From NCBI GenBank assembly GCA_035529315.1, contig DATKWZ010000016.1:9650-73649 (forward strand): a stretch of 64,000 nucleotides of DNA, read 5' to 3'. Under the pieces are notes generated by a model. That model did no database searches. It saw only the letters and a list, made by a program, of their open reading frames with translations, and was not told where the DNA came from. The number at the start of each line of letters is the position of its first letter. The stretch's first letter is position 1. The translations under genes were made by a program, and so were the position numbers. Shown here in pieces: positions 43,314 through 64,000 of the stretch. The DNA is from Anaerolineae bacterium (GTDB taxonomy: Bacteria > Desulfobacterota > Desulfobacteria > Desulfobacterales > ETH-SRB1).

Positions 43314-43324
43314 GGAGATTATAA

Positions 43325-44203
43325 ATGTCTGCAAAGATCATCAGCGGCACTGAGATTGCCAAACAGATACGGGAAGAACTGAAAAAAGAGATAAAGGAAT
43401 TAAAGGAAAAACATGGTGTAACTCCGGGGTTGGCTACAGTTCTTGTAGGCAACGATCCAGCCTCCAAGGTATATGTAGGGCAAAAGGAGAAGTCGTGCAG
43501 CAATTTGGGGATATATTCGGAAAGAATCGATTTGCCTGGAGATATCTCGGAGCAAGAGCTTCTCTCGCAAATTGAGAAATTGAACAAGGACCCGCGGATT
43601 CACGGGATATTGATTCAGCTCCCTCTTCCGAAACAGATCAATGAATCCCGTGTTATATATGCCATTGATCCTGCTAAAGACGTGGATGGTTTCCATCCTG
43701 TAAATGTTGGGAAGATGGTGGTCGGAGAAAAGTGTTTTCTCCCCTGCACCCCTCATGGAATACTGGAGCTTCTGGCCCGTTCCGGTGTGCAAACAGAAGG
43801 CGCCGAGGTCGTGGTTATCGGCAGGAGCAACATTGTTGGGAAACCTGTCCTTAATCTGATGCTCCAAAAACGACCTGCAGGCAATGCAACGGTAACGCTG
43901 TGCCATACAAGAACAAAAGACCTGGCCTTCCACACAAAGCGGGCAGACATCCTGATAGTAGCTACCGGTTATCCCAAGACAGTTACAGGGGACATGGTAA
44001 AAGAAGGGGTTGTGGTTATCGATGTGGGGGTAAACCGGATAGGAAAGACCCCGGAAGGAAAGGCGATTCTGGTTGGTGATGTGGACTTTGAAAGTGTAAA
44101 AGAAAAAGCCGCTGCTATTACACCTGTACCAGGTGGCGTAGGTCCCATGACGATAGTCATGCTGATGAAGAATACGGTTGAATCCGCAAAGAATACAATA
44201 TAA
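43325..44203 (+). CDS. folD: Bifunctional methylene-THF dehydrogenase / methenyl-THF cyclohydrolase
   Basis: GILIQLPLP, DVDGFHP, GRSNIVGKP and PVPGGVGPMT motifs, 292 aa. Confidence 0.97.
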   Translation: MSAKIISGTEIAKQIREELKKEIKELKEKHGVTPGLATVLVGNDPASKVYVGQKEKSCSNLGIYSERIDLPGDISEQELLSQIEKLNKDPRIHGILIQLPLPKQINESRVIYAIDPAKDVDGFHPVNVGKMVVGEKCFLPCTPHGILELLARSGVQTEGAEVVVIGRSNIVGKPVLNLMLQKRPAGNATVTLCHTRTKDLAFHTKRADILIVATGYPKTVTGDMVKEGVVVIDVGVNRIGKTPEGKAILVGDVDFESVKEKAAAITPVPGGVGPMTIVMLMKNTVESAKNTI

Positions 44204-44255
44204 GCTGGTAAACTTAATAACTCAACAGCTTACCAGCTAACTTGGAGGACTGATT

Positions 44256-46251: not shown

Positions 46252-49200
46252 ATGAAAGAAAGTAAAAAAACAAAAAAAGGGGCTGTCCTCGTCGTAGGCG
46301 GAGGGGTTGCCGGCGTTCAGGCGGCGCTCGACCTTGCTGATCTGGGTTTCTATGTATATCTTATCGAAAAGTCAACTTCAATTGGGGGGGCTATGGCCCG
46401 CCTCGACAAGACCTTCCCTACTAATGACTGTTCCATCTGTATCCTGGCGCCTAAACTGGTTGAGGCCGGCAGGTCACCGAATATAAAGATTATAACAAAA
46501 GCAACCCTGACATCCGTGGACGGAGAGGCAGGCGACTTCACTGCCACGGTTTGCTGTAAGCCACGATACATTAATGAAGAACTGTGCACTGCCTGCGGAA
46601 TGTGTACCATGTATTGCCCCATAGTCATTCCTGACGCTTACAATGAGGGTTTTACTGTAACAAAAAATCCTCATATGGACTATCCCCAGGCTGTTCCTGC
46701 CAGTTTCCATATTGATCCAAAGGAGTGCCTTTTTGTCAACAATCAGACCTGCCGTATATGTGCCTCTACCTGTCAGGCCCAGGCGATCGACCTTGATGCA
46801 AAGGAAGAGACGCTTGACTTGGCAGTAGGCGCTGTAATACTTGCCCCGGGTTATGGCTCGATCAGCGAAGATGTGCTGAGTCGTTTTGGTTACGGCGACT
46901 ACCCTGATGTGCTTACCGGCTTCGAGTTTGAAAGGATGATGTGCGCCTCGGGTCCATCCAATGGAGAAATACTTCGGCCGTCAGATGGAAAGCATCCAAA
47001 ACGTATCGCCATTTTACAGTGCGTGGGTTCAAGAGATGTAACATGCGGCAATGGATACTGTTCATCGGTTTGCTGCATGTATGCCATAAAAGAGGCCACG
47101 GTCGTAAAAGAGCATGCCCCTGATATTGAAATTGTTATTTTCTATATGGAGATGCGGACTCAGGGTAAGGGATTTGACGCTGCTCGCCAAAGGGCCGAAA
47201 AAGAGTATGGCCTCCGATTTGTCCGAGCAAGGGTTGCCGGTGTCCGGGAAGACGGCAAAAACTTAAGGATCCCCTATGTAAACGAAAAGGGGGAGCACAT
47301 AGCCGAAGAATTTGATATGGTGATCCTGGCCCAGGGCCTTGAGTCACCCTCTGATGCTGAATCACTGGCATCTGCCGCTGAAATAGATCTCAATCACTAT
47401 AATTTTTGCAAGACAGGCAACTTTTCACCGCTTGAAACAACCCGGCCGGGGGTTTTTGTGGCAGGCGCTTTCCAGGGGCCAAAGGATATCCCGGACAGCG
47501 TAACTCAGGCATGTGGCGCGGCCGCTCTTGCCTCGGAACTCCTGCGGGATGTTCGTGGAACCGGTGTGGTGAAAAAAGAATATCCGGTCGAAATAGAGAT
47601 AGAAGCAGAACCCCGAATCGGCGTGCTTGTCTGTCACTGCGGGATCAATATCGGTGGCGTGGTGGATGTGCCTGAAGTAATGAAATATGCCTCTACATTA
47701 GACAATGTAGTATATGCGGGCAGGAATCCTTATAGCTGTTCGCAGGATACTCAAACTACAATCAGAGAAAAAATTAAAGAACATGGGTTAAACAGGATAG
47801 TAGTCGCTGCCTGTACCCCTCGTACCCATGAACCATTATTCCAGGAGACACTGAGAGATGCGGGCCTGAACCGTTCTTTATTTGAAATGGTTAATATAAG
47901 AGATCAGTGTTCATGGGTGCATATGCATGAACCAAAAGAGGCAACAGACAAGGCGAAAGAGCTTGTAAGGATGGCTGTGGCAAAGGCAAATCTCCTTGAG
48001 CCCCTTGTTGAACAGACAGTTCCGGTTATCCCAAAGGCGCTTGTTATCGGTGGGGGTGTCTCCGGCATGACTGCGGCCTTAAGTATCGCAGACCAGGGGT
48101 TTGAGTGCTTTCTTGTAGAAAAAGCCGGTCAACTTGGCGGAAATATCGGTAATCTTGTTTTTACTCTTTCCGGAGACGATCCGCATACCCTTCTCAATCA
48201 ACTCAAAAACAGGATAGAACAGGAACCGCTTATACATGTTTATACCAATGCATTTGTTGAAAACGTGTCCGGTTATGTGGGGAATTTTACCACGTCAATT
48301 AACTCGGGTTCCAAGACCGAGGATGTGGAACATGGCGCCATCGTGGTAGCCACCGGCGGCAGACCATACCAGCCCACACAATATCTTTATGGAAAATCAA
48401 AGCAGGTAGTTACCCAGCTTGAACTGGAAAAGATAATCTCTTCTCCTGCCGAGGTTCAGAAGATTCAGGACATCGTTATGATTCAATGCGTGGGCTCACG
48501 TGGGCAAGACCTTGCCTATTGCAGCAAGATATGCTGCATGCAGGCGGTTAAAAACGCCTTGAAGATACTGGAATTAAATTCACGTGCCACTGTATATATT
48601 CTTTACCGGGACATGAGGACCTATGGATTTGCGGAAGACTACTACAGAAAGGCAAGAGAAAAAGGTGTAATCTTCATCCGCTATGAAAAGGATGCTCTCC
48701 CTGAAGTTATTGAAGAAGGCGGAAAGGTCAAGATTGAATTTTTGGACCCCCTGCTTGATGAAAAGATAGCCATTAAACCGGATTTACTGGCATTGAGCGT
48801 AGGGGTTGTGCCAAATGATGTGGAACACCTGGCAAAGGAACTCAAGGTTCCTCTTACCGGTGATAAGTTTTTCCTGGAAGCTCATGCCAAGCTTCGCCCT
48901 GTAGAATTCTCTGTAAGCGGTGTCTATTTGTGCGGGCTGGCGCATTCCCCTAAACCTATCGATGAATCGATTGCACAGGCAAAGGCTGCGGCATCAAAAG
49001 CCGGCGCCTCGCTGGCGAAGGGATTTGTATCGGTGGAACCGATTGTCTCGGCAGTTAACACCGATGCCTGTATCGGCTGCGGCATCTGTGAGAGTCTCTG
49101 CCCATATAGTGCGATCAGAATAATCAGGGTGGGAAAGGGTAAAAAAGCCGAGACGATTTCAGCTTCATGTAAGGGGTGCGGTATATGCGCCTCACATTGC

Positions 49201-49293
49201 CCAACATTTGCCATATCAATGGGGGGCTTCACTAATGAAGAGATAATAGCCCAGATAAGGGCGTTTGGTGGAAATCAGGCAATAAAATCATGA
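46252..49293 (+). CDS. Tandem HdrA-like flavoprotein (two heterodisulfide-reductase-A modules, 1013 aa)
   Basis: Two FAD dinucleotide folds ([16 protein letters not shown] and [16 protein letters not shown]), two QCVGSRD motifs, and a C-terminal 2x[4Fe-4S] region ([24 protein letters not shown]). Confidence 0.9.
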
Positions 49294-50078
49294 AAACACA
49301 AGTTACCCTTACCACTCTTTACAAGATGAAGAAAAAAGGCGAAAAAATTGTTGCCCTTACCGCCTATGATTATCCGTTTGCAAAGATAGTTAATGATTCA
49401 GGGGTCCATATGATCCTTGTAGGGGATTCAGTAGGAATGGTGGTTCAGGGAAAATCAAGCACCCTGCCGGTTACAATGGATGAAATGATATACCATACCC
49501 GCATTGTGTCAAAAGCCGCCGGAAACGCGATGATTGTCGGTGATATGCCGTTTATGTCTTACCAGACAAGCATAAAAGATGCGATTACCAATGCAGGACG
49601 TTTTCTTAAAGAAGCAGGCGCTGCTGCAATCAAGCTGGAGGGAGGAAGAGCGGTCAGTGAAACAATAAAAGCAATTTCAGGAGCTGGAATTCCGGTACAG
49701 GCCCATATAGGCATTACACCGCAATCTGTTCACCAGATGGGAGGCTACAGAGTTCAGCGCAATGAAGAACAGCTCATGGTAGATGCCCTTGAGATAGAAT
49801 CCGCCGGAGCCTTTTCCGTTGTTTTAGAAGGTATCCCATCCGAAATTTCAGAAAAGATAACTAAAGCGCTTGCAATACCGACAATAGGAATAGGAGCGGG
49901 TCCACATTGCGACGGGCAGATACTTGTGCTGCACGACCTCCTGGGGTTAAATGACAGGCATGTGCCAAAGTTCGTAAAACAATACGCTAATCTGCTTGAT
50001 GATGCGAAAGCCGGAATAAAACAGTATATAGAGGAAGTGCAGGCAGGTAAATTTCCTGCCAAAAAACATTGTTATTGA
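49290..50078 (+). CDS. panB: 3-methyl-2-oxobutanoate hydroxymethyltransferase
   Basis: [26 protein letters not shown] and [14 protein letters not shown] motifs. The start overlaps the hdrA-like stop (ATGA). Confidence 0.95.
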
Positions 50079-50081
50079 AAT

Positions 50082-51024: not shown

Positions 51025-51795
51025 ATGTCTCAGGATTTATTTAAGCCGAAGATACTCGGTTTTTTATGTAACTGGTGCTGTTATACAGCGGCAGATTCAG
51101 CAGGGGTAGCAAGATACCAGTATCCGCCGAATATAAGGGTCATCAGGGTGATGTGTTCAGGAAGGATTGATCCTGTCTTTATCCTTGAGGCTTTTTCCTG
51201 TGGAGCAGATGGAGTCTTTATTGGTGGATGCCACCTCGGGGAATGTCATTACCAGACCGGAAACTATGAGGCACTGGTGGTTGCTGCCCTAACGCGCAAG
51301 TTATTGGAAGAGGCCGGACTCTCAGCAGAAAGATTTCTTCTTGAATGGGCCTCCGCTGCAGAGGGACCTCGCTTTGTGGAGATTATAACGAATTTCACAA
51401 ACAAGATCAAAAGCTTAGGCCCCTTAGGCAAGGCGGAAGGGAAAGACAAGGATGAATTAAGGTTAAAGATATCAGCAGCAAAGTCAGCGGTAAAGCAGAT
51501 GAAGTTGCGAACCATGTTTGGAAATCTTGCAAAGGATCTGCACAAGAAAGGTGATTATTCCGAACAGATTATTCATGATAAGTTGGATCAGAAAGTAGCC
51601 GGTGTCATAAATACTGAAATTGCAAAACAGGAAACATTTCTTCGGATCCAAAAAGATGGTCCGGTCTCTTTTAATGACCTGGAAAAAAAGATCGGCGCAA
51701 CTCTTTCAGAGATCGAGAAATATGTCTCCACCTTCAGCAAAAAAGGGCTGATAACGGAAACTGACGGGTACCTGTCGGTAACGAGTAACGAGTAA
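51025..51795 (+). CDS. MvhD/FlpD-like (methyl-viologen-reducing hydrogenase delta) protein with a C-terminal winged-helix-like extension
   Basis: ILGFLCNWCCYTAADSAG...MCSGRID...GADGVFIGGCHLGECHY is the MvhD part. The extra ~110-aa tail contains GPVSFNDLEKKIGATLSEIEKYVSTFSKKGLI. Confidence 0.85.
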   Translation: MSQDLFKPKILGFLCNWCCYTAADSAGVARYQYPPNIRVIRVMCSGRIDPVFILEAFSCGADGVFIGGCHLGECHYQTGNYEALVVAALTRKLLEEAGLSAERFLLEWASAAEGPRFVEIITNFTNKIKSLGPLGKAEGKDKDELRLKISAAKSAVKQMKLRTMFGNLAKDLHKKGDYSEQIIHDKLDQKVAGVINTEIAKQETFLRIQKDGPVSFNDLEKKIGATLSEIEKYVSTFSKKGLITETDGYLSVTSNE

Positions 51796-51808
51796 CCAGA
51801 AGGAAATT

Positions 51809-52390
51809 ATGGCAATAGACAGAGATGATTTAGAACCTCGGTTCAAATTTGAAGTAGCGGAACTTCCGGAAGGTAAACATGTCAAGGGATGCTATGCGTG
51901 CGGCAGTTGTACGGGCACTTGTCCTGTCAGCCAGGTAATCCCTGAATTCGATCCGCGAAAGATCCTTCATATGATCATGCTTGGTTTGAAAAATCGTCTC
52001 CTTTCATCCGATTTGATCTGGTATTGCACAGGATGCCAAACCTGTGAGTTTGTGTGTCCGCAGGATGTGAACTTCAGCAATGCGATCAAGGCGCTGAGGA
52101 GCATGGCTTTGCGTGACGGCTATGTGGATACGGCCACCCTGAGTAAAATGGGAAAGCTGGCCGTTGTAAACGAGAAATACTGTGCAGGTTGCCTGACTTG
52201 TGTGAGAGTATGCCCGTTCAAAGCGCCTTATATGGAAAAAGGAAGCGGGCTTGCTCATATTGAGCCGGTAAAATGTGTGGCGTGCGGAATATGTGTGGCC
52301 GAATGTCCTGCCGGGGCTATTGAACTGAAAACATCTGAAGACGTAAGGCAGTTTGCCTCATGTGAATTTTTGCTCTCAAGGGAACTATGA
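51809..52390 (+). CDS. HdrC-like iron-sulfur protein fused to a 2x[4Fe-4S] ferredoxin
   Basis: CYACGSCTGTCP...DPRKI...CTGCQTCEFVCP is the HdrC-like part. It is followed by CAGCLTCVRVCP and CVACGICVAECP. Confidence 0.75.
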   Translation: MAIDRDDLEPRFKFEVAELPEGKHVKGCYACGSCTGTCPVSQVIPEFDPRKILHMIMLGLKNRLLSSDLIWYCTGCQTCEFVCPQDVNFSNAIKALRSMALRDGYVDTATLSKMGKLAVVNEKYCAGCLTCVRVCPFKAPYMEKGSGLAHIEPVKCVACGICVAECPAGAIELKTSEDVRQFASCEFLLSREL

Positions 52391-52394
52391 TAAT

Positions 52395-52814
52395 ATGACT
52401 AATTCAAATGAACCGGATATTGTGGCTTTTTGTTGCCATTATACCGCCTATGCATGCTCACAGGATTTGCGGAACTTACCTCGATTGGGGTTTCCGGAGA
52501 ACGTGAGGCTGGAAATTCTGCCCTGCAGCGGCAGGATCAGCATAATCCGTTTGTTAAAAGCATTTGAACAAGGCGCGGACGGAATTTACGTTGCCGGATG
52601 CAAGGATGATACCTGTCACAATATAAGAGGAAGCCGGGTTGCAAAAAAAAGGGTTGATTACGCAAAAGATGTTTTTGACCAACTTAATATAGAACCTGAA
52701 CGGATAGAGATGTTTATGATTTCTCGCGAGCCGAATCGCGGATTTATTGAAGTAGCCAAAGAAATGACCATGCGTATCAAAAAGTTGGGACCAAGTCCTT
52801 TAAAGGGGAAATAG
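52395..52814 (+). CDS. Second MvhD/FlpD-like protein
   Basis: IVAFCCHYTAYA...PCSGRIS...GADGIYVAGCKDDTCHN. ATG 52395 is preferred because the ORF-track start at 52353 overlaps the upstream gene. Confidence 0.85.
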   Translation: MTNSNEPDIVAFCCHYTAYACSQDLRNLPRLGFPENVRLEILPCSGRISIIRLLKAFEQGADGIYVAGCKDDTCHNIRGSRVAKKRVDYAKDVFDQLNIEPERIEMFMISREPNRGFIEVAKEMTMRIKKLGPSPLKGK

Positions 52815-52817
52815 AAT

Positions 52818-53486
52818 ATGATTGTCGGACAGAGAAAACCGATTCAGGAAATTTTCGAAATGTTGAAAGGAATTAAAAAGATCCTGATCCTTGGATGCGG
52901 TGGATGCGTTACGGTCTGTTCTGCCGGAGGAGAAAAGGAGGTTGAAATTCTTGCTTCAATCCTTCGGATCAATAGCAAAAAAACGGGGGAACCGGTTGAA
53001 ACAAAAGAAAAGACTCTTGCCCGGCAGTGCGATATGGAATATCTGGAAGAATTAAAAGATGAGGTTGACAAATATGACGCTGTCCTTTCCATGGCCTGCG
53101 GTGTGGGGGTGAACTTTATGGCTGACATCTATCCAAAAACCATTATTCTTCCGGCTTTAAACACCAGCTTTATGGGTGTTTCAGATGAGCAGGGGGTATG
53201 GTCGGAACGGTGTGCGGGCTGCGGAAACTGTGTTCTTGATAAGACCGGCGGTTTGTGTCCTGTTGCACGCTGTTCAAAGCGTTTGTTTAACGGCCCATGC
53301 GGAGGATCGCAGAACGGGAAGTGTGAAATTAATGCTGATATTGCCTGTGTCTGGCAATTAATATATGATCGCTTAAAGGGGTTGAATCAATTGGAGAAGC
53401 TGCAAGAGATATTTCCCATGAAGGATTGGTCGAGCAGCCTGCACGGAGGTCCCAGAAAAATCGTCCGGGAGGATCTAAAACTATGA
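52818..53486 (+). CDS. metV: Methylene-THF reductase C-terminal-domain (zinc-ribbon) protein MetV
   Basis: GCGGCVTVC and CPVARCSKRLFNGPCGGSQNGKCEI motifs. The gene lies directly upstream of metF and overlaps it (ATGA). Confidence 0.85.
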   Translation: MIVGQRKPIQEIFEMLKGIKKILILGCGGCVTVCSAGGEKEVEILASILRINSKKTGEPVETKEKTLARQCDMEYLEELKDEVDKYDAVLSMACGVGVNFMADIYPKTIILPALNTSFMGVSDEQGVWSERCAGCGNCVLDKTGGLCPVARCSKRLFNGPCGGSQNGKCEINADIACVWQLIYDRLKGLNQLEKLQEIFPMKDWSSSLHGGPRKIVREDLKL

Positions 53487-54412
53487 GTTCAGCAAGCAAT
53501 TTGAAAAAGGTGTTGACATCCGGACAGTTTGCCGTAACAGCGGAACTGGGTCCCCCAAAAAATGCAGATGCAGAAGTTATTCGCGCAAAGGCAAAGTTGC
53601 TTTCAGGCTGCGCTGACGCGGTAAATATTACCGACTGTCAAACCGCCATTGTCCGGATGTCGAGTATAGCGGCATCTGTTGTCTTGATGCAGGAAGGTCT
53701 GGAGCCGATAACCCAGATGACGTGCAGAGACAGGAATCGTATCGCCATTCAGAGCGATCTCCTGGGCGCTGCAGCACTGGGTCTGAAAAATTTACTCTGT
53801 CTTACAGGGGATCATCAAAAATTCGGAAATCATCCTAATTCTACCGGCGTCTTTGATATGGATTCGATCCAGCTTTTGCAGATGGTAAGGATGATGCGCG
53901 ACGAAAAGGTCTTTCAGTGTGGAGAGGAAATCAAAGGGAAAGAACCGAACTTTCTCCTGGGAGCTGCAGCCAATCCCTTTGCAGATCCGTTTGAGTTTCG
54001 AGCCCTTCGTCTGGCAAAAAAAATTGCGGCAGGCGCTCAGTTTATTCAGACGCAGATTGTTTATAACATCGATAAATTTGCCGCGTGGATGAAAGCGGTC
54101 AGAGATCTTGGACTCCATAAAAAATGTTACATTTTGGCCGGGGTTACACCTCCAAAGTCGATTGGAATGGCCAGATACATGAAAGACAATGTACCTGGCC
54201 TGGATATTCCCGACAATGTGATAGCTCGCCTCCAGGGGGCTAAAGATGCCAAAAAGGACGTGCAGGAAGAAGGGATCAATATTTGTGTAGATATTATTAA
54301 CAAGGTAAAAGAGATAGAAGGTGTGGCCGGTGTACATATCATGGCAATAGAATGGGAGAGCGCCATACCAGAGATCACGAAGCGAGCCGGCCTGCTTCCG
54401 AGACCAAGATGA
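53483..54412 (+). CDS. metF: Methylenetetrahydrofolate reductase
   Basis: FAVTAELGPPK, LCLTGDH and FIQTQIVYN motifs. Start at ATG 53483. Confidence 0.9.
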   Translation: MSSASNLKKVLTSGQFAVTAELGPPKNADAEVIRAKAKLLSGCADAVNITDCQTAIVRMSSIAASVVLMQEGLEPITQMTCRDRNRIAIQSDLLGAAALGLKNLLCLTGDHQKFGNHPNSTGVFDMDSIQLLQMVRMMRDEKVFQCGEEIKGKEPNFLLGAAANPFADPFEFRALRLAKKIAAGAQFIQTQIVYNIDKFAAWMKAVRDLGLHKKCYILAGVTPPKSIGMARYMKDNVPGLDIPDNVIARLQGAKDAKKDVQEEGINICVDIINKVKEIEGVAGVHIMAIEWESAIPEITKRAGLLPRPR

Positions 54413-54514: not shown

Positions 54515-55471
54515 TTGTCCATAGAAATACCAAGGGTTGCTTATGCCGGAAAGATAAAAGAGATCCCGTTGGGATGTGAAGGGAATACCATAACAGTAGG
54601 TGGCGAGTCATGCTATCCGTTTCATCTGTTCGAAGGGGCTATGACGCATGCTCCTAAAATAGCGATGGAGGTGTATGACAGGGCGCCTGTGGATTGGCCC
54701 GATATAGTGCTGGAACCGTTTGCCGATGTTGCAGATGATCCTGTGGCATGGGCTCGAAAATGTGTCGATACTTATGGGGCTGAAATGATAGCGCTGCAAC
54801 TGGCAAGCACTGATCCGAATGCTGAGGACATACCGGCTGACGAGGCCGCCGCGATTACAAAAAAAGTCGCTGATGCGGTGGATGTTCCTTTGATTGTTTT
54901 TGGAAGTTCAAATGTGGATAAAGATACCGAGGTATTAAGGGCGGTTTGCGAGGCGTGTGAGGGGAAAAACCTGATTATAGGCCCTCTATCGGAAGGAAAC
55001 TATCGGGCGATCGGAGCCACGGCAATCGGTTATAAACATACTGTTATGGCTTCAACACCAATCGACATAAACCTGGCAAAGCAGCTCAATATCCTTTTGG
55101 GAAACTTGAACGTTCCTGACGATAAGATCATTATTGATCCGACGACCGGCGCTCTTGGATACGGGCTTGAGTATTGTTACAGCGTAATGGAACGAATCCG
55201 AATGGCCGCGCTTGTTCAGAACGACGAAAGACTCCAGTTCCCCATCATTGCCAATTTTGCAAAAGAGGTATGGAAGACAAAAGAGGTAAAAATGAGTGAA
55301 ATGGAAGCTCCGCTTTTAGGAGATCAAAAAAAGAGAGGTATATTGATGGAGGCCTTAACGGCTCAGTGCGTACTCCTTGCCGGTGCTGATATTCTGGTAA
55401 TGAGGCACCCTGAAGCTGTTAATTTAGTAAAAGAATCGATTAGAGATTTGATGATCAGAGGAGAGGGCTAA
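54515..55471 (+). CDS. acsD: Corrinoid iron-sulfur protein small subunit (CFeSP delta)
   Basis: 318-aa TIM-barrel-type protein located between metF and acsB. TTG start preceded by AAGGGGG. The call rests on family resemblance and position. Confidence 0.85.
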   Translation: MSIEIPRVAYAGKIKEIPLGCEGNTITVGGESCYPFHLFEGAMTHAPKIAMEVYDRAPVDWPDIVLEPFADVADDPVAWARKCVDTYGAEMIALQLASTDPNAEDIPADEAAAITKKVADAVDVPLIVFGSSNVDKDTEVLRAVCEACEGKNLIIGPLSEGNYRAIGATAIGYKHTVMASTPIDINLAKQLNILLGNLNVPDDKIIIDPTTGALGYGLEYCYSVMERIRMAALVQNDERLQFPIIANFAKEVWKTKEVKMSEMEAPLLGDQKKRGILMEALTAQCVLLAGADILVMRHPEAVNLVKESIRDLMIRGEG

Positions 55472-55473
55472 TA

Positions 55474-57678
55474 GTGTCTAAGATAATTTGTTCCGCAGCT
55501 ATTCGAGGCGCTCACAAGATCGTGGGTACGGCAGAGGCAAAGTGCGAGGTGGCATTAAAAAAGTGGGGGCCTGATCAAGAGATCGGATTTCCGAATACCA
55601 CCTATTATCTTCCGATTATCTACGGGATACTCGGTATTCCAGTAAAGACACTGGGGGATGCAAAGCAGGTGCTTGACAAGTGCAAGGAACTTCTTCCAGC
55701 ACAGGTAAGCGATAATGTATGGCTCCCCTATCTGGCGCCTGCATTGGAAGCCGGCATGGCTACGTTTTTCGCGGAAGAGATCATTGAGGCGATAAGATAT
55801 TTGGAAGAACCAGATTATTATACACAGGGAGAGGACCCGCTTTCTGATAATATATGGCTGGGGGCTGCCGATGACGTTATCATGCGAAAACGTGGTGTGG
55901 AATTTGTTGACGGGACAGCTCCGGGGTTTGCCGCTATATTGGGCGCTGCGCCTACCCCTGAGATTGCGGCAAAAATAGCAATAGAGCTTCAAGAAAAGAA
56001 TCTGTATGTCTTTATGTGTTCGGATCACGAAGGAAAGACCATGTCCGAGCAACTGGTAGAGGCCGGCGTTCAGATAGGCTGGCCTACCCGTCTGGTCTCT
56101 TTTGGACCGAGCTATACCGCGGCCGTGTTTGCAATGGGGTTTGCGACACGCGCCGCCATGTCATTCGGCGGGGTCAAGCCCGGAGATTTTGCAGCAAACT
56201 TACGTTATAATAAAGACAGGATTTTTGCCTTTGCAATGCCGCTTGGAACCGTGACGGATGAATGGTATGCCAATGCAGCCGGAGCCATCAACTGGGGCTT
56301 CCCCACCATAGCCGACACACCTATTCCTGAGATCCTGCCGACCGGGATATGCACCTATGAACATGTGGTCAGCAACGTGCCGCATGATCAGATAGTCGCC
56401 AGGGCAATTGAAGTTCGGGGGTTAAAGGTAGCTATAACCAAGGTGGATATCCCCATGTCCTATGGGCCTGCTTTTGAGGGAGAACGTATCAGAAAGGACG
56501 ATCTCTACTTTGAATGCGGCGGGGGGAGAACACTTGGAGTAGAGCTGACTATCTCTAAGAATATGTCGGAAGTTGAGGACGGAAAAATTGAAATGATCGG
56601 TCCTGACCTGGATCAGATTAAAGAGGGGGACAAACTCCCCTTTGCGGCACTGATCGAAGTAGCGGGTCGGCAGATGAAGCCGGAATTTGAGCCGATCTTA
56701 GAACGCCAGCTCCATCACCTGATTAACTATGTCCAGGGTATAATGCATATCGGACAGAGAAATATTATGTGGATACGGGTAGGAAAGGCGGCTGTTGAAA
56801 AAGGATTTTTACTCAAACATTTAGGCAAGGTAATACATGCTAAATACCATCAGGACTTTGGGAATATTATCGATAAGGTGCAGATAAAGATTTACACGGA
56901 TGAAGAAAGAGTCAAAGAAGTCCTGGAAATGGCAAACAGGCTGTATAAAGAAAGAGATAGTCGGGTTGAGAATATGACCGACGAAACAGAAGAGACCTTC
57001 TATTCATGTACCCTGTGTCAGTCATTTGCCCCGAGCCATGTCTGCGTAATTACGCCGGAACGAACAGGGATGTGCGGCGCTTACAACTGGCTCGACTGCA
57101 AGGTCTCTTATGAAATCAACCCTACAGGCCCAAATCAACCGATCAAAAAGGGAGAATGTACCAATCCGATAACTGGCCAGTGGAAAGGAATCAACGATTT
57201 TGTATTCAATGCCTCGCGCCAACAAATTGAGCAGGTAAGCGCTTACAGCTTGATGGAGTCACCGATGACTGCGTGTGGGTGCTTTGAGTGCGTGGCGACA
57301 ATCCTTCCCCTGTGCAATGGCATTATGATAGTAAACAGGAATTTTATGGGCATGACACCCTGCGGCATGAAATTTACTACCCTGGCCGGAATGGTGGGCG
57401 GCGGAAACCAGACACCCGGTTTTTTAGGAGTAAGCAAACATTACATTTGCAGCAGAAAATTTCTCAAGGCCGAAGGAGGCTTAAAGCGTGTGGTATGGTT
57501 GCCTAAAATGTTAAAAGAGGAGATCGCCGAACGGATAAAACCGATATGCGAAGAAATGGGGATTCCAAATTTCCCTGAGATGATAGCCGATGAAACAATC
57601 GGAACCACGGAAGAGGAGATCCTTCCGTTTCTCGAAGAAAAAGGGCATCCGGCTCTTACCATGGATCCGTTGATGTAG
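55474..57678 (+). CDS. acsB: CO-methylating acetyl-CoA synthase (ACS, A-cluster subunit)
   Basis: 734 aa. A-cluster cysteines are present (CTLCQSFAPSHVC and SPMTACGCFEC). GTG start 2 nt after the acsD stop. Confidence 0.95.
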   Translation: MSKIICSAAIRGAHKIVGTAEAKCEVALKKWGPDQEIGFPNTTYYLPIIYGILGIPVKTLGDAKQVLDKCKELLPAQVSDNVWLPYLAPALEAGMATFFAEEIIEAIRYLEEPDYYTQGEDPLSDNIWLGAADDVIMRKRGVEFVDGTAPGFAAILGAAPTPEIAAKIAIELQEKNLYVFMCSDHEGKTMSEQLVEAGVQIGWPTRLVSFGPSYTAAVFAMGFATRAAMSFGGVKPGDFAANLRYNKDRIFAFAMPLGTVTDEWYANAAGAINWGFPTIADTPIPEILPTGICTYEHVVSNVPHDQIVARAIEVRGLKVAITKVDIPMSYGPAFEGERIRKDDLYFECGGGRTLGVELTISKNMSEVEDGKIEMIGPDLDQIKEGDKLPFAALIEVAGRQMKPEFEPILERQLHHLINYVQGIMHIGQRNIMWIRVGKAAVEKGFLLKHLGKVIHAKYHQDFGNIIDKVQIKIYTDEERVKEVLEMANRLYKERDSRVENMTDETEETFYSCTLCQSFAPSHVCVITPERTGMCGAYNWLDCKVSYEINPTGPNQPIKKGECTNPITGQWKGINDFVFNASRQQIEQVSAYSLMESPMTACGCFECVATILPLCNGIMIVNRNFMGMTPCGMKFTTLAGMVGGGNQTPGFLGVSKHYICSRKFLKAEGGLKRVVWLPKMLKEEIAERIKPICEEMGIPNFPEMIADETIGTTEEEILPFLEEKGHPALTMDPLM

Positions 57679-57764
57679 AGGGATTGAGGGATTGTTGTTT
57701 AATAATCTGTGGAAATATGCGAAATCTATGGATGAATTCAGGAATTTAGGGGGAAAGAATAATT

Positions 57765-59111
57765 ATGGGACTTTCGGGAATAGAGATATTTAAAAAACTA
57801 CCAAAGACAAATTGCGGCAAGTGTGGGGTTCCTACCTGCCTGGCTTTTGCCATGAAATTGGCTACGGGTAAGGCTGAACTTGACGCGTGCCCGGATTTGT
57901 CTGAAGATATGAAAGAAGAACTCGGGGAGGCCTCGGCTCCTCCTGTAAGAACAGTGGTTATCGGTATTGGTGAACGCGCGGTAAAACTGGGCGGGGAAAC
58001 AGTTCTGTTCCGTCACGAGAAGCGGTTTGAAAATCCCCCTGCATTTACCCTTCTCCTTTCGGACAAGATGGATAAGGCTGAAATTTCGGCTAAACTAACC
58101 AAGTTTAAAGAAACCACCTATGAACGCGTCGGCATTGTGCTGCGGCCTGCAATGGTTGCCGTTAAAGGAGAATCCAAAGATACCGCCTTATTTATGGCAT
58201 TGGTTGAAAAGGTCTGTAATGATACAGATGCGGCGCTTGTGCTGATGAACGAAGATACAGATGCGCTTTCACAGGCTGCCAAAACCTGTTCAAACAGAAA
58301 GCCGCTCCTTTATGCCGCTACCAGGGAAAATGTGGAAACACTGGGAAACCTTGCCAGGGAACTTTCATGTCCGTTAGCGGTTAAAGGAAATAGCCTGGAG
58401 GAGCTGGCAGAACTCTCTGAAAAACTGATCAAAATGGGGCTTAAGGATCTGATTCTTGATTCAGGGGCAAGAACCGCGGGAAAGTCCCTGGAAGATCAGA
58501 TTATTATCCGAAGATCAGCATTGATGAAAAAATTTAAGCCCTTTGGATTTCCTACAATTGTCTTCCCGTGTGAAATGACCGACAACCCGATGAAAGAAGC
58601 GATGATCGCCTGTCAGATGGTTGTAAAATACGGCAGCATCATTATTCTCTCTGAAATAGAAGGCCACAGCATCTTCCCGCTTCTCCTTGCGAGTATGAAT
58701 ATCTTTACGGATCCGCAAAGGCCTATGGCCGTCGAACAAAAGATTTATGAGATCGGCGCTACAAATGAAAATTCACCTGTTCTTATTACAGGAAATTTTT
58801 CTCTTACCTATTTTATTGTTTCAGGTGAGATAGATGCAAGCCGTGTGCCGTCATATCTATTGATTAAGGACACAGAGGGCCTTTCGGTCTTAACCGCATG
58901 GGCTGCCGGCAAATTCGGAGCAGACACCATTGCGCCCTTTGTAAAGAAATGCGGTATTGAGGAGAAGGTCAAACATCGCAAATTGGTGATTCCGGGTTAT
59001 CTTGCATCCATCAGCGGAGAGCTGGAAGAAGAGCTTCCGGGTTGGGAAATTCTCATCGGGCCGAGAGAGGCAAGCCATCTGCCTGCCTATTTGAAACAAT
59101 GGAGCGCGTGA
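57765..59111 (+). CDS. acsC: Corrinoid iron-sulfur protein large subunit (CFeSP gamma)
   Basis: N-terminal [4Fe-4S] motif LPKTNCGKCGVPTCLAFAMKL...ACP. 448 aa. Confidence 0.95.
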   Translation: MGLSGIEIFKKLPKTNCGKCGVPTCLAFAMKLATGKAELDACPDLSEDMKEELGEASAPPVRTVVIGIGERAVKLGGETVLFRHEKRFENPPAFTLLLSDKMDKAEISAKLTKFKETTYERVGIVLRPAMVAVKGESKDTALFMALVEKVCNDTDAALVLMNEDTDALSQAAKTCSNRKPLLYAATRENVETLGNLARELSCPLAVKGNSLEELAELSEKLIKMGLKDLILDSGARTAGKSLEDQIIIRRSALMKKFKPFGFPTIVFPCEMTDNPMKEAMIACQMVVKYGSIIILSEIEGHSIFPLLLASMNIFTDPQRPMAVEQKIYEIGATNENSPVLITGNFSLTYFIVSGEIDASRVPSYLLIKDTEGLSVLTAWAAGKFGADTIAPFVKKCGIEEKVKHRKLVIPGYLASISGELEEELPGWEILIGPREASHLPAYLKQWSA

Positions 59112-59186
59112 AAACAATTTTGAGTTTTTAATTCTTAATTTTAAATTAATTCAACATTCAACATTTAACATTGGAGCAAAGCGACT

Positions 59187-60071
59187 ATGGTAATATGTGT
59201 TGCGGAAAATATTAATATTATGTCAAAGACGCTCGGGCCTGCAATGAAGGAGAAAAATGCCGGTCCGATTCAGGATATGGCAAGGGCTCTGACTAAAAAC
59301 AGCGCTGACTATCTTGATCTGAATATCGGACCTGCCAGAAAGGGCGGCGATGAGCTGATGGATTGGCTGGTTAAGACGGTTAAGGAAGTAACCGATCTTC
59401 CTCTTTCACTTGATACAACTAATCCGGTTGCCATGGAAGCAGGATTAAAGGCGAACATAAAAGGGAAATCATTGATAAACTCTGTTTCGCTTCAGCCTGA
59501 GCGATTGGAAAAAGGGCTTCCCATGATAATTAAGTATAATGCGGACGCGATAGGACTTCTGTGGGGAAAAGATGGAATGCCGCGGGATGCCGATGAGCGG
59601 GCTGCTATGGCAGTCGATTTTATTTACCAGGCAAATGAGGCGGAAATTTCCACCTCAAACATCTGGATCGATCCGATTGCAACGCCGATATGCGTTGATG
59701 TAAATCAGGTTTTGTCTGGTCTGGAATTCATGAGCATGTTGGGTGAAATAGCGCCTGAAGCCAAATCGATTGTAGGGCTTTCAAATGTTTCCAACGGCGC
59801 TCCGGAAAATCTCCGTCCATATCTGAATCGCGCCTATTTAATGATGCTTATGAAATATGATATTTATTCCGCAATTGTCGATGGATTTGACAATGAACTG
59901 CTCGCGATTGCCGGAGGTAAAAGGCCTGAACATGTTAAATTAGTGCATGACATAATGGACGGAAACGAACCTGACCCTGCATCCCTGGGACAAACCGAAT
60001 TGGAATATTACAAAACCACACGTGTTCTCATGGGTAAGGTTCTGTATTCACATTCGTGGTTAACCACTTAG
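59187..60071 (+). CDS. acsE: Methyl-THF:corrinoid/iron-sulfur protein methyltransferase (pterin-binding)
   Basis: Pterin-binding barrel motifs (DYLDLNIGPA, LSLDTTN, INSVS, GLSNVSNG). 294 aa. Confidence 0.9.
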   Translation: MVICVAENINIMSKTLGPAMKEKNAGPIQDMARALTKNSADYLDLNIGPARKGGDELMDWLVKTVKEVTDLPLSLDTTNPVAMEAGLKANIKGKSLINSVSLQPERLEKGLPMIIKYNADAIGLLWGKDGMPRDADERAAMAVDFIYQANEAEISTSNIWIDPIATPICVDVNQVLSGLEFMSMLGEIAPEAKSIVGLSNVSNGAPENLRPYLNRAYLMMLMKYDIYSAIVDGFDNELLAIAGGKRPEHVKLVHDIMDGNEPDPASLGQTELEYYKTTRVLMGKVLYSHSWLTT

Positions 60072-60101
60072 GATTGATGATTGTCAATCAACAATCACAA
60101 A

Positions 60102-63100
60102 ATGGCTAAGTTAGAAATAAAAATTGATGGCCGGACGTTATGGGTTGATCTTGGCACAATAATATTGGATGCCGCACTCAAGGCTGGAATTTTTATCCCA
60201 ACGCTGTGTTATATGCCCGGCAAAGACAACGAGCACCCTTGCGGAATATGTGTTGTCGAAGTCGATGGAAGAGAAGAATTGGTTCATGCCTGTTCCACCC
60301 TTGTGGAAGGCGGCATGGTGGTAACTTCTCAAAGCGATCGGGTTATAAAAGCAAGACAAGATGTTTTAGAACGGATGCTGTCGCGACATTATGGCGATTG
60401 TATTGCACCCTGTTCTCTGACATGTCCAGCCGGTATTAACATTCAGGGTTATCTCAATAGAATTGCAAAGGGTGAGTTTACAGAAGCCCTGAAACTTATC
60501 AAAGAGAAGAATCCCCTTCCTCTTTCCGTTGGAAGGGTCTGCCCACATTTTTGTGAAACTCGATGCCGCCGTATCCTGGTGGACGAATGCCTCTCTATTA
60601 ATCATCTAAAGCGATTTGTGGCGGATTTTTCTATCTATCACAAAGAAACGCGTGCTTTGCCTCCTCTCCCATCTTCCGGACACAGTGTTGCGGTGATCGG
60701 TGGTGGGCCTGCCGGGCTCTCCGCTGCTTATTATACGGCCCATATGGGGCATGAGGTAACTATATTCGAGGCAATGCCTCAATTAGGCGGAATGCTTCGT
60801 TATGGGATTCCGGAATTTCGTCTTCCCAGAAAGATCGTTAACAAAGAGATAGAGGATATACTCAGAGCAGGTGTTCGCCCACAAACCGGAAAGAGGCTGG
60901 GAGTTGACTTTACCATTAAGAGCCTTAAGGAGGATGGTTTTAAGGCTATTTTTATCGGTATCGGCGCCTGGCAGAATGAACAGTTGGGTATCGATGGAGA
61001 GAACATTGAAGGGGTTATTTCAGGTATTGATTTTCTCAAGAGTATAAGCCTTGGACAGATGCCGTCCATAGGCCAGAGGGTAGCCGTGATCGGAGGGGTT
61101 GACATAGCCGTAGATACGGCCAGGACATGTGTAAGGATGGACCTGGATGAAGTTGTCGTCATATATCAACGTTCGATGATGGAAATGCCGGCAAGCCATC
61201 GAGAAGTCATTGAAGCCGAAAAAGAGGGTGTCAAGTTTATATTTATGACAGGGGTTACAAAGATAAAGAAAGAGAAAGATTTTCTCAGGCTTGAAACAGT
61301 CCGTATGAAGTTGAGTCAGCCGGATAAGAGTGGAAAGCGCTGGCCGATTCCTGATCCGGGATCCGAAGAGACCTGTGAAGTAGATAATGTGATTGTAGCG
61401 ACCGGACAGACCCCTGATCTTTCCTGGATGGAGATGTTGGATGAAGGGGTGAAACCGCATGTCCTTCCCGGGGGAACTATTGTTGCCGTTCCTCAAACGC
61501 TTCAGACTTCGGAGAAGGGAGTCTTTGCAGGAGGTGACGTGGTACGCGGCCCAAGAACGGTTATCCAGGCAATCAATGGGGGAAGAAAGGCGGCCAGATC
61601 AATCGATATATATCTTAGAAAAAAACCCTTATACCATCCCAAACGGCAGATCAATTTCACAAAAGGTAAAAAGTTCGAAGATATTGATCTGCATAACTTT
61701 GAAGGTATTCCGATCGGCCTGGGAGAAAAGATGCCTGTAAGGGCGCCGGAAAGACGCGTCCGGGATTTTGATGAGATCGAATTGGGATTTACTGAGGAGA
61801 CCGCGTTTCGGGAATCGAAACGATGCTTGCAGTGTGGATGCGCAGCTCTTTCTAAATGTAAATTGCGTGAATTATCCATAGAATATGGGGTGAGGTTTCC
61901 TGTGTCCGAAATGCTGCGTAGGCGCCAGTACGGAATCGACAGCCATCATCCTTTTATTATTATTGATCCGAACAAGTGTATATTCTGCCAGCGTTGCAAG
62001 AATAGCTGTGAATATGGTGCATTGGAATTAGAGGGGACCGGGTTTGACGAAAACGGATTCCCCGAACGCATTGCCATTATAATTAACGACAGGTGCGTTT
62101 CTTGCGGCGCTTGCGTGGATAACTGTCCAGCCGGCGCTCTGACAAAAAAATCGGTCGACTTTCCTGTTGTCCCCGGTGAAATCAAAAAAGTCAAAACAGT
62201 CTGCCCGTTCTGCGGTTGCGGATGTACCATTGACTTGAACATGAAAGGAAACTCAATTGTTGAAGTAACCGCTGATCCTGAAGATGGCCCCAATTTTGGG
62301 AATCTCTGTGTAAAGGGGAGATTTGGAAATGAATTTGTTCGTCATCCGGATCGGTTAAAAAAACCGCTTATCCGAAAAAGGGGATATTTTTGGGAGGCAA
62401 GCTGGGAAGATGTGATCTCTCATGTCGCCCAAAAGTTTTTGGAAATAAGGGATAATGATCCTGACAGCTTGGCTGGTTTGAGTTCGGCGAAGTGCACCAA
62501 TGAGGAAAATTATCTTATGCAGAAATTTATGCGCGCAGTGGTTGGCACCAACAATGTGGACCACTGTGCGCGGCTCTGTCACGCGTCTACAGTGGCCGGT
62601 TTAGCCCAGTCTTTTGGGAGCGGGGCAATGACCAACCCGATAGCCGATTTTAAAAAGGCTGATGTAATCCTCCTTACAGGGAGCAATCCCACTGAAAATC
62701 ACCCCGTCATAGCCCTTGGGATGATAAAGGCCATACAGGAAAACGGAACAAAACTGATTGTGGTCGATCCCCGGGAGATAGAAATGGTGCAGTATGCTGA
62801 AATCTGGCTCCGTCCAAAGCCTGGTACGGATGTGGTCTGGTTAAACGGAATGATGCATGTAATTATAGATGAAGAACTGTATGATATCTCTTATGTGGCA
62901 GACAAAACAGAAAACTTTATGGCCTTGAAAGAGACGGTAATGCGATACAACCCGGAATTTGTTGAATTGATCACCGGTATACCGTCTGAAGATTTGAGAA
63001 AGGCCGCACGTCTTTATGCCAAAGCCGGAAGAGGGTCTATTGCATATGCCATGGGCATCACCCAGCACGCATTTGGCACTGACAATGTTAAATCGATTGC

Positions 63101-64000
63101 CAATCTCGCCATGTTGTGTGGAAACGTTGGAATCGAAGGGGGCGGGGTTAACCCGCTGCGAGGTCAAAACAATGTGCAGGGGGCCTGCGATATGGGCGCC
63201 CTTCCAGATGTACTCCCTGGTTACCAGTCTGTTTCCGACCAGGAGATCGTCGGAAAATTCGAAGATGCCTGGGGCAAGAAACTTCCGCCAAAACCAGGCA
63301 TGGCTGTAACAGACATGTGGTCTGCCATTCTGGAAGGAAAGATAAAAGGGATGTACATCATGGGAGAAAATCCCGTTGTGAGCGATCCCAACTCAAAAGA
63401 TGTAGAAGCGGCTCTGAAAAAATTAGATTTTCTGGTGGTTCAGGATATCTTTATGACAGAAACGGCAAAACTGGCCAATGTGGTCCTTCCTGCTACCAGT
63501 TTTGCTGAAAAAGAGGGTACTTTTACCAATACGGAAAGGCGAGTCCAACGGGTGAGGCAGGGATTAGCCCCCTTGGGGGATTCCAGACCTGATTGGAAGA
63601 TAATCTGCAGCCTGTCTGAAAAGATGGGAATGCCTATGAATTACAATGATCCTGAAGAGATCATGGAGGAAATCGCCTGTCTTGTGCCGATTTACGGTGG
63701 AATTCACTATGAACGTCTCAACAAGAATAGTCTCCAGTGGCCATGCCCGAACCGGGAACATCCGGGCACTCCGTATCTGCATAAAGGTAGTTTTACCCGT
63801 GGAAAAGGATTGTTTCAATCCGTGGAATTCATCCTCTCGGATGAACTTCCAAATGAAGAATATCCTTTTCTTCTTTCAACAGGAAGAGTCCTTTACCATT
63901 ACAACAGCGGCACCATGACCCGCAAGGTCGAGGGGCTTAACTCGATTTCTCCCGAAGCAATCACGGAGATTAATCCGTTAGATGCGGAAAAAAAGGGGAT
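60102..64000 (+). CDS. [2Fe-2S] + GltD-like NAD(P)H flavoprotein + 4Fe-4S + formate dehydrogenase alpha (molybdopterin) fusion, 3'-partial
   Basis: Not in the ORF track because it runs off the window; the frame from ATG 60102 stays open for 1299 codons. CGICVVEVDG is the 2Fe-2S part. VAVIGGGPAGLSAAYY...GGMLRYGIPEFRLP is GltD-like. KTVCPFCGCGCTI and VDHCARLCHAST belong to FdhA, with Cys codon TGT at 62577-62579 where selenoproteins have TGA. Confidence 0.9.
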   Translation, partial: MAKLEIKIDGRTLWVDLGTIILDAALKAGIFIPTLCYMPGKDNEHPCGICVVEVDGREELVHACSTLVEGGMVVTSQSDRVIKARQDVLERMLSRHYGDCIAPCSLTCPAGINIQGYLNRIAKGEFTEALKLIKEKNPLPLSVGRVCPHFCETRCRRILVDECLSINHLKRFVADFSIYHKETRALPPLPSSGHSVAVIGGGPAGLSAAYYTAHMGHEVTIFEAMPQLGGMLRYGIPEFRLPRKIVNKEIEDILRAGVRPQTGKRLGVDFTIKSLKEDGFKAIFIGIGAWQNEQLGIDGENIEGVISGIDFLKSISLGQMPSIGQRVAVIGGVDIAVDTARTCVRMDLDEVVVIYQRSMMEMPASHREVIEAEKEGVKFIFMTGVTKIKKEKDFLRLETVRMKLSQPDKSGKRWPIPDPGSEETCEVDNVIVATGQTPDLSWMEMLDEGVKPHVLPGGTIVAVPQTLQTSEKGVFAGGDVVRGPRTVIQAINGGRKAARSIDIYLRKKPLYHPKRQINFTKGKKFEDIDLHNFEGIPIGLGEKMPVRAPERRVRDFDEIELGFTEETAFRESKRCLQCGCAALSKCKLRELSIEYGVRFPVSEMLRRRQYGIDSHHPFIIIDPNKCIFCQRCKNSCEYGALELEGTGFDENGFPERIAIIINDRCVSCGACVDNCPAGALTKKSVDFPVVPGEIKKVKTVCPFCGCGCTIDLNMKGNSIVEVTADPEDGPNFGNLCVKGRFGNEFVRHPDRLKKPLIRKRGYFWEASWEDVISHVAQKFLEIRDNDPDSLAGLSSAKCTNEENYLMQKFMRAVVGTNNVDHCARLCHASTVAGLAQSFGSGAMTNPIADFKKADVILLTGSNPTENHPVIALGMIKAIQENGTKLIVVDPREIEMVQYAEIWLRPKPGTDVVWLNGMMHVIIDEELYDISYVADKTENFMALKETVMRYNPEFVELITGIPSEDLRKAARLYAKAGRGSIAYAMGITQHAFGTDNVKSIANLAMLCGNVGIEGGGVNPLRGQNNVQGACDMGALPDVLPGYQSVSDQEIVGKFEDAWGKKLPPKPGMAVTDMWSAILEGKIKGMYIMGENPVVSDPNSKDVEAALKKLDFLVVQDIFMTETAKLANVVLPATSFAEKEGTFTNTERRVQRVRQGLAPLGDSRPDWKIICSLSEKMGMPMNYNDPEEIMEEIACLVPIYGGIHYERLNKNSLQWPCPNREHPGTPYLHKGSFTRGKGLFQSVEFILSDELPNEEYPFLLSTGRVLYHYNSGTMTRKVEGLNSISPEAITEINPLDAEKKG

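Follow-up and report, generated by a model that had tools for sequence, protein, structure and literature searches.

The 64,000-nucleotide stretch analyzed here (the window; positions 9,650 to 73,649 of contig DATKWZ010000016.1, GenBank assembly GCA_035529315.1) ends in a long open frame in which a [2Fe-2S] domain, a GltD-like flavoprotein and the catalytic subunit of a formate dehydrogenase (FDH) are joined in one chain. This fused FDH raises the question of whether such a chain is a working enzyme and, if so, what supplies or takes its electrons. The gene is real and complete, it closes a complete Wood-Ljungdahl operon, and it encodes cysteine (Cys) at a position that is selenocysteine (Sec) in most of its relatives. 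We consider it probable that the product is a cytoplasmic FDH/CO2 reductase of the host's Wood-Ljungdahl pathway and a Cys-ligand member of a family already known as 'fused FdhAB'.

The frame lies on the + strand and was started at the ATG at 60102, which was picked by alignment to residues 1-4 of StnC/NfnA. An in-frame TTG lies upstream at 60081 and no clear Shine-Dalgarno sequence was seen ahead of the ATG. A reading of the letters made earlier without database searches (the sequence-only reading) had described a single open reading frame (ORF) of 1299 codons that runs past the window, and in the source genome this frame was completed by a stop codon 211 nt beyond the window end, giving a protein of 1369 amino acids (aa) with a complete C-terminal Molydop_binding domain. 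As that reading had remarked, the ORF is absent from the ORF track supplied with the window, because the frame is open-ended and is listed only when open ends are permitted. Contigs from the source runs (depth about 90) matched the window identically over the whole fused FDH stretch. Contigs at 95-99% identity from an independent estuary metagenome covered almost all of this stretch and differed from it by substitutions alone, and no insertions or deletions were found in the contigs of any of four runs, so that no frameshift or stop splits the ORF. Contigs matching parts of the gene at 99-100% were present in two metatranscriptome libraries; this is weak evidence of transcription and not proof of it. 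A terminator scan 3' of the stop codon detected none.

Profile and structure comparisons confirmed the fused protein as a genuine Cys-type FDH. Residues 690-1369 matched TIGR01591 with 877.3 bits against a cut-off of 666.25 and covered model positions 1-672 of 672; the window-truncated copy alone scored 797 bits. The best solved matches of the catalytic half were all FDHs, namely the F420-dependent FdhA (9t1s), FdhF of the hydrogen-dependent CO2 reductase (HDCR; 7qv7), FdsA and FdhH, with E values from 1e-171 to 1e-212 as compared to only 1e-93 for the best nitrate reductase. Clustering with non-FDH molybdoenzymes, the outcome that would have spoken against the assignment made from the letters, was not what was found. 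The active-site string HCARLCH occupies residues 821-827, and its metal-ligand pair, Cys826-His827, aligned with ..ARL-X-H.. of 9t1s and ..ARLCH.. of 7qv7. Arg1020 was the same in both of these solved FDHs and is presumably the equivalent of FdhH Arg333. The motif for the FS0 [4Fe-4S] cluster (CxxCxxxC...C) was also present, in the Molybdop_Fe4S4 domain that begins at KTVCPFCGCGC.

Domains were placed by a Pfam profile search of the protein. They followed each other in one ORF in the order Fer2_4, Fer4_20, Pyr_redox_2, ferredoxin, Molybdop_Fe4S4, Molybdopterin and Molydop_binding (Table 1). The four modules that had been drawn from the letters were found at their places, and the description of the protein as a [2Fe-2S] domain and GltD-like flavoprotein joined to a Cys-type FDH was borne out by this domain set.

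Table 1. Features of the fused FDH gene and of the operon upstream of it, in window coordinates.
Feature	Position	Strand	Residues and details	Basis
Fused formate dehydrogenase gene	60102..64000	+	residues 1-1299 of 1369; stop outside window	
N-terminal [2Fe-2S] domain, Fer2_4	60108..60335	+	residues 3-78; Cys36, 47, 50, 64	Pfam + alignment
GltD/NfnB-type two-[4Fe-4S] domain, Fer4_20	60399..60635	+	residues 100-178; H96, C100, C104, C108, C147, C151, C155	
FAD + dinucleotide fold, Pyr_redox_2	60684..61583	+	residues 195-494; FAD loop GGGPAG, residues 200-205	
Second Rossmann glycine loop, VAVIGGVDIA	61080..61109	+	residues 327-336; non-canonical, Val332 for second Gly of GxGxxA	
Y355-Q-R at place of YRR motif	61164..61172	+	2'-phosphate binding	
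Junction cluster motif CxxCxCx5C	61824..61859	+	Cys575, 578, 580, 586	
2 x [4Fe-4S] ferredoxin domain, Fer4_7	61974..62138	+	residues 625-679	Pfam
Molybdoenzyme [4Fe-4S] domain, Molybdop_Fe4S4	62184..62342	+	residues 695-747; Cys701, 704, 708, 736	PF04879 2e-16
Molybdopterin (Mo/W-bisPGD) catalytic domain	62352..63623	+	residues 751-1174	
Cys826 at Sec position, then His827	62577..62582	+	Cys826 codon TGT	
Decayed SECIS hairpin remnant	62591..62609	+	3 of 7 stem pairs; Leu codon CUG to UUA	
Arg1020	63159..63161	+	in PLRGQNNVQG; identical in aligned solved FDHs	
Molydop_binding domain start	63867..64000	+	from residue 1256; cut at window end, whole in genome	
fhs, folD, cooS (Wood-Ljungdahl operon start)	41550..46211	+		
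HdrL, double HdrA-like	46252..49293	+	1013 aa	
MvhD-like, HdrC-like/ferredoxin, MvhD, MetV, MetF	51025..54412	+		
acsD, acsB, acsC, acsE	54515..60071	+	directly upstream of fused FDH	

The codon of Cys826, TGT at 62577-62579, had been read as a sign of the Cys rather than the Sec type, and comparison with relatives upheld this. The same codon was TGA, within ..HCAR[LY]-TGA-H.., in 73 of 81 related loci, which identifies Cys826 with the Sec position, and many database homologues of 822-830 aa end exactly at the Cys826-equivalent position. Among 77 fused genes including the window copy, the ligand codon was TGA in 69 and TGT or TGC in 8. Each of the 69 fused Sec genes carried a hairpin 14-32 nt past the codon with the stem GUGGCC/GGCCGC and, usually, the loop GGUCU. 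We take this hairpin to be a real selenocysteine insertion sequence (SECIS) because 6-7 of 7 stem pairs were kept in all of them, with compensatory variants (GUGACC/GGUCAC and GUUGCA/UGCAAC). The window hairpin kept 3/7 pairs, the lowest of all rows, one cause being a synonymous change of a Leu codon. These counts refer to a register-fixed 7-bp stem, the only measure that separated Sec from Cys genes; whole-segment minimum free energy z-scores for the 64-nt stretch after the codon gave no separation. In the tree of this region the Cys forms were scattered, with starred branches forcing at least 6 changes, and the window gene fell in a starred group of three Sec and three Cys genes. The host genome retains selA, selB, tRNA-Sec and an FdnG-like FDH gene that contains TGA, so the Cys is a local and fairly recent replacement and not the loss of the selenium trait. 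Together, the codon, hairpin and tree comparisons indicate that the Cys of the fused FDH is a derived replacement of Sec in a lineage that still makes selenoproteins. Could the Cys codon or the long frame instead be an assembly or sequencing artefact that hides a Sec (TGA) gene or two separate genes? The closest relatives, at 84-86% identity, do include TGA forms and the genome is a 57-contig assembly. We consider this very improbable given that three substitutions have degraded the SECIS hairpin, more than an error in a single base can explain, that two sister genomes (L012, L013) also have TGT, and that the source-run contigs are identical and free of indels as described above. The gene offers a natural and recent Sec-to-Cys swap in a selenoprotein-making host, with Sec orthologues at 84-86% identity available for comparison.

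Other FDH genes were found in the same genome and its relatives. The FdnG-like gene (G000:C30, about 104600-107800, - strand; L003) has its in-frame TGA at IEHQARI-U-HSAT and is split by it into 223 + 832 codons. A second cytoplasmic Cys-type FdhA of 673 aa (HCARLCHS; G000:C53:51123-55268, equal to L099:4124-8269, - strand) is followed by two sulfhydrogenase HydB/HydG-like proteins, a Fer4_22 protein and a NAD_binding_1/DHODB_Fe-S_bind protein, an arrangement that matches the second cytoplasmic FDH described in Desulfurivibrio dismutans; the contig also carries selB, at a distance of about 7 kb. The genome therefore uses Sec in one FDH and Cys in two FdhF-type ones. In two related Desulfobacterales metagenome-assembled genomes (MAGs) the gene immediately 5' of the fused FDH is a separate Sec-type FdhA (L078:1262-4069 and L079:1299-4112), which its TGA splits into two called ORFs. 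The fused gene of L078 is of the Cys type, making a Sec/Cys pair in tandem, and the MAG of L078 also has a Sec-type fused copy (L010) whose contig is of low coverage and may stem from a strain mixture.

The electron input of the fused FDH was considered by comparing its N-terminal half to solved structures. Residues 1-687 aligned end to end with NfnA of Caldicellulosiruptor (9bov, 6e-160), archaeal NfnA (9n5u) and StnC (8oh5, 4e-153). Every cluster cysteine was conserved with NfnA/StnC, which accounts for one [2Fe-2S] and five of the six [4Fe-4S] clusters in the N-terminal half, the sixth [4Fe-4S] being FS0 in the FDH domain. The FAD loop VAVIGGGPAG lies at 196-205, and H96/C100/C104/C108 and C147/C151/C155 were conserved with 9bov. 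In the StnC/NfnA enzymes NADPH reduces FAD, and the electrons travel by way of two GltD clusters, followed by a junction cluster, to the [2Fe-2S] cluster and from there to a NuoF-like bifurcating core. Two or three clusters form a side branch, and the Fdh-like domain at its end is truncated and pterin-free, an evolutionary remnant in the view of both papers on these enzymes. In the fused FDH the branch that dead-ends in StnC/NfnA would reach a complete active site, and the same scaffold should therefore connect the flavin to Mo or W. On this analogy one chain would hold FAD, one [2Fe-2S] cluster, six [4Fe-4S] clusters and a Mo- or W-bis(pyranopterin guanine dinucleotide) (bisPGD) site, and electrons would move between flavin and metal over the two GltD clusters, the junction cluster, the two ferredoxin clusters and the molybdoenzyme-domain cluster. 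The external redox partner of the flavin would most likely be NAD(P)H, by homology, and this is the least secure step. The [2Fe-2S] arm, which is the route to the NuoF-like core in StnC/NfnA, would be without such a partner in this host. No Complex1_51K (PF01512) match was found anywhere in the genome (97.8% complete), which excludes a Bfu-type complex and leaves the arm with no known partner. A Bfu-type NuoF/NuoE-like partner beside the gene was also considered and rejected, as the genome has no PF01512 and the downstream genes are motility/chemotaxis genes.

This same likeness allows the protein to be read as a StnC/NfnA-like, catalytically dead electron-transfer subunit of a Bfu-type transhydrogenase and not an FDH at all, since its N-terminal 690 residues match StnC/NfnA at E values of 1e-153 to 1e-160 and StnC/NfnA-like proteins are often annotated as formate dehydrogenase. 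We give this reading hardly any weight. The FDH domain is full length and above the TIGR01591 cut-off, the active-site Cys-His and Arg are present, no NuoF/BfuB gene was found in the 97.8%-complete genome, and a separate degenerate paralogue of 1118 aa is already encoded in the same genome. Within the set of N-module homologues the active-site motif was present in 103/104 intact full-length forms as compared to 0/104 degenerate forms.

The 1118-aa StnC/NfnA-like paralogue (G000:C30:28047-31403, equal to L098:6048-9404, + strand) has the same 2Fe-2S, GltD and ferredoxin module, a canonical VIGGGNTAID loop and a truncated molybdopterin domain; no FDH active-site motif was found in it and no partner gene was found for it. 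It sits between an enolase and an ABC-F gene and belongs to a large family. In a FastTree tree of the N-terminal modules the intact fused FDHs and the degenerate forms were interleaved, forcing at least 4 changes. The 'split' label in this tree is noisy, as some short proteins are fused genes that break off at the TGA or where a contig stops. The interleaving fits a history in which active fused FDHs decayed more than once into StnC/NfnA-like proteins, though this is only a lead because the tree is quick and unrooted. The presence of both forms in one genome makes a link between active fused FDHs and the 'remnant' domain of the solved StnC/NfnA structures.

The flavoprotein had been described as a module that oxidizes NAD(P)H, and this description held only in part. 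The GltD-like fold, the FAD loop and the cluster ligands were all present; the use of NAD(P)H was argued from the fold, and the two motifs in contact with NADPH in the solved structures are non-canonical. Several observations weigh against free NAD(P)H use. The second dinucleotide loop reads GGVDIAVD as compared to G[GA]GNTAMD in all five solved NADPH-binding homologues, so that Val332 stands where all five have the second Gly of GxGxxA. The YRR motif, which corresponds to Y310-R311-R312 of Thermotoga maritima NfnB, binds NADPH at its 2'-phosphate, and in DsrL the motif goes along with NADP(H) use (PMC7596348). At its place the fused FDH has Y355-Q-R, with the Tyr and the second Arg kept. The 1118-aa paralogue of the same genome retains GGGNTA. 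The NADPH subdomain was also the most divergent part of the protein between clades (0.37 identity), yet within the window clade it was as conserved as the other domains (0.80 identity). Since it is conserved within the clade while being the most divergent between clades, the pattern suggests a changed function or partner and not decay.

The changes followed the clades. The nearest relatives of the window gene have the loop GG[VI][DNE][IT]A with YQR or YKR, and a Seep-SRB1a subgroup keeps the third Gly of the loop and has YQR. The 44 genes of the Desulfobulbales loci (L032-L086), aligned to window residues 329-337 and 354-358, have GGNN[IV]A with YPR, that is Asn for the second Gly of GxGxxA and YPR for YRR. 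GGGN[ST]A with YRR is the pair held by the basal and distant fused forms and by nearly all of the split ones. Split homologues of 675-735 aa are common and cover 99% of the N-terminal module, and the FDH of Moorella thermoacetica, NADPH-dependent by biochemistry, is encoded in a split form by sfrB2/sfrA2/fdhF3; both speak by homology for a link to NADPH. NAD(P)H dependence of the fused FDH is thus plausible but not secure, judged from the non-canonical motifs, the missing NuoF-like partner and the conserved HdrL in the operon, and members of this clade should be assayed before they are labelled 'NAD(P)H-dependent'.

These motifs bear on an alternative in which the fused FDH makes no use of free NAD(P)H. 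The GltD-like module of the Desulfobacterota clade would have changed its partner, and the FDH would work in a complex with the HdrL and MvhD of the operon, which could be a flavin-based bifurcating or confurcating CO2 reductase/FDH linked to ferredoxin and/or DsrC. The departures from the canonical motifs coincide exactly with this clade, its window group having GG[VI]D.A and YQR and its 44 Desulfobulbales loci GGNN[IV]A and YPR, and the basal, distant and split relatives hold the canonical ones. In 32 of 57 loci, all of the Desulfobulbales clade, the next gene after the fused FDH is HdrA-like and 57% identical to the window HdrL; in most of the L032-L086 loci this neighbor encodes about 900-980 aa. 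Orthologous HdrL therefore accompanies the fused FDH in both Desulfobacterota clades, a further point against NAD(P)H as the partner. No HdrA neighbor was seen for canonical-motif homologues, in a sample of only three that were checked. The [2Fe-2S] arm is retained though the genome has no NuoF-like gene, and for D. dismutans HdrL has been put forward as the protein that donates electrons to the fused FDH (PMC12142623). We nevertheless consider this partnership possible but on balance unlikely. HdrA/MvhD/HdrC-like genes next to metVF are the usual signature of a MetFV-Hdr-Mvh methylene-tetrahydrofolate reductase, the window HdrL lies 11 kb upstream of the fused FDH gene, the Tyr and second Arg of YRR remain, and the effect of exchanging the loop Gly for Val or Asn is only predicted. 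The earlier view that one polypeptide would suffice is not established, as the clade keeps the HdrL/MvhD set in the same operon.

A broader proposal is that in the Desulfobacterota fused FDHs the GltD-like module is no longer a free NAD(P)H site but is wired to the co-inherited HdrL/MvhD, and that the same family was, more than once, the active source of the StnC/NfnA remnant domain. The first part is suggested because the glycine loop and YRR are altered while the domain stays under selection. We regard this proposal as doubtful; if true, it would describe a NuoF-independent, flavin-based bifurcating CO2 reductase/FDH for the Wood-Ljungdahl pathway. The reading we prefer remains that of a Wood-Ljungdahl FDH with NAD(P)H as the likeliest, if insecure, partner of its flavin.

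The place of the gene agrees with this preferred reading. The operon runs fhs, folD, cooS, HdrL, panB, a DUF2520 protein, MvhD-like, HdrC-like, MvhD, metV, metF, acsD, acsB, acsC, acsE and fused FDH, and the adjacency to Wood-Ljungdahl genes that had been noticed from the letters is real, with the FDH standing directly behind fhs, folD, cooS, metVF and acsDBCE. The closest relatives of the fused FDH are in Desulfobacterales MAGs, Candidatus Desulfaltia bathyphila (86%) and Seep-SRB1a genomes (about 80%). The host, itself of the Desulfobacterales and carrying dsrA, belongs to a marine/sediment sulfate-reducer group related to the syntrophic Seep-SRB1a. The term 'CO2 reductase' is not established as the direction of the enzyme because the pathway could run either way in such organisms, and a dsrA-positive Desulfobacterales host could run it oxidatively. 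The enzyme would set which carrier pays for the thermodynamically hardest first step of the Wood-Ljungdahl pathway or, in reverse, gathers the electrons from its last step. The fdhD and molybdenum cofactor genes that had been expected downstream were not found there; the genes 3' of the fused FDH are FapA, CheX and a response regulator, and FdhD is encoded elsewhere in the genome on another contig.

Two further observations concern the neighborhood. panB (ketopantoate hydroxymethyltransferase) and the DUF2520/Rossmann-like gene occupy window positions 49290-50960, between HdrL and the MvhD/HdrC-like genes. Some 3 kb past the fused FDH stands a gene for a FolE2-type GTP cyclohydrolase I (L009:7061-7837, - strand), which in three related loci is the immediate downstream neighbor; this may be a link to pterin/folate supply.

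The fusion itself is nothing unusual. Its Pfam order recurs in more than 100 full-length clusters, whose proteins are 1340-1400 aa long and match with 46-95% identity and 99-100% coverage. Their sources are Thermodesulfobacteriota, Anaerolineae, Fibrobacteria and a Thermoplasmata archaeon, and the usual name given to them is 'formate dehydrogenase subunit alpha'. Among 60 related loci with complete genes the upstream neighbor was AcsC-type in 39 and AcsE-type in 13. The D. dismutans copy (RS08735) has been published as fused FdhAB and tied to the Wood-Ljungdahl pathway, with the adjacent HdrL as proposed donor (PMC12142623). The design is thus already known and common in sulfate-/sulfur-cycling bacteria, and the window copy differs mainly by its Cys where most relatives have Sec. 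As a fused FDH the gene is ordinary; the Sec-to-Cys swap, the caution over NAD(P)H and the link to StnC/NfnA make this copy useful. On another contig (that of P0030) a 78-aa 2Fe-2S_thioredx (NuoE-like) gene and a flavodoxin gene precede a canonical-motif fused FDH that faces an acs/metF cluster, and these two proteins may be small carrier partners for the [2Fe-2S] arm in other lineages.

Among known systems, the catalytic half resembles FdhF of the Thermoanaerobacter kivui HDCR (7QV7, Cys-type; E 1e-211), with which it shares the identical HCARLCH active-site string, and Escherichia coli FdhH (1AA6, Sec-type; E 6e-171). Unlike the fused FDH, neither has a flavoprotein module and both exchange electrons via hydrogenase-linked Fe-S subunits. 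The first 690 residues share their cluster ligands and FAD fold with StnC of Sporomusa ovata StnABC (8OH5) and NfnA of Caldicellulosiruptor saccharolyticus and Thermococcus NfnABC (9BOV, 9N5U). In those proteins the Fdh-like domain is truncated, pterin-free and inactive, whereas that of the fused FDH is complete, and they dock a NuoF/NuoE-like bifurcating core, for which the fused FDH genome has no NuoF-like gene. The M. thermoacetica enzyme, set beside the fused FDH by description, is a Sec enzyme of separate subunits, and the fused FDH lacks the canonical NADPH motifs expected of sfrB2/sfrA2/fdhF3-type modules. Closer in design is the D. dismutans fused FdhAB with its database orthologues, which have the same single-chain order, about 1370 aa, a place at the end of the acs/Wood-Ljungdahl set and HdrL/MvhD nearby, at about 50% identity to the window protein. 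The sampled Desulfobulbales forms have Sec (TGA), a SECIS hairpin and HdrL directly downstream; the window gene has Cys instead, its hairpin is decayed and its HdrL stands further up in the operon. Also close are the Sec-type fused orthologues of Desulfobacterales including Seep-SRB1a (L010, L011, L014-L016, L019-L025), which are 79-86% identical over the junction and active-site region and hold the same place behind acsE, and which differ in having TGA where the window gene has TGT and in keeping the 7-bp SECIS stem.

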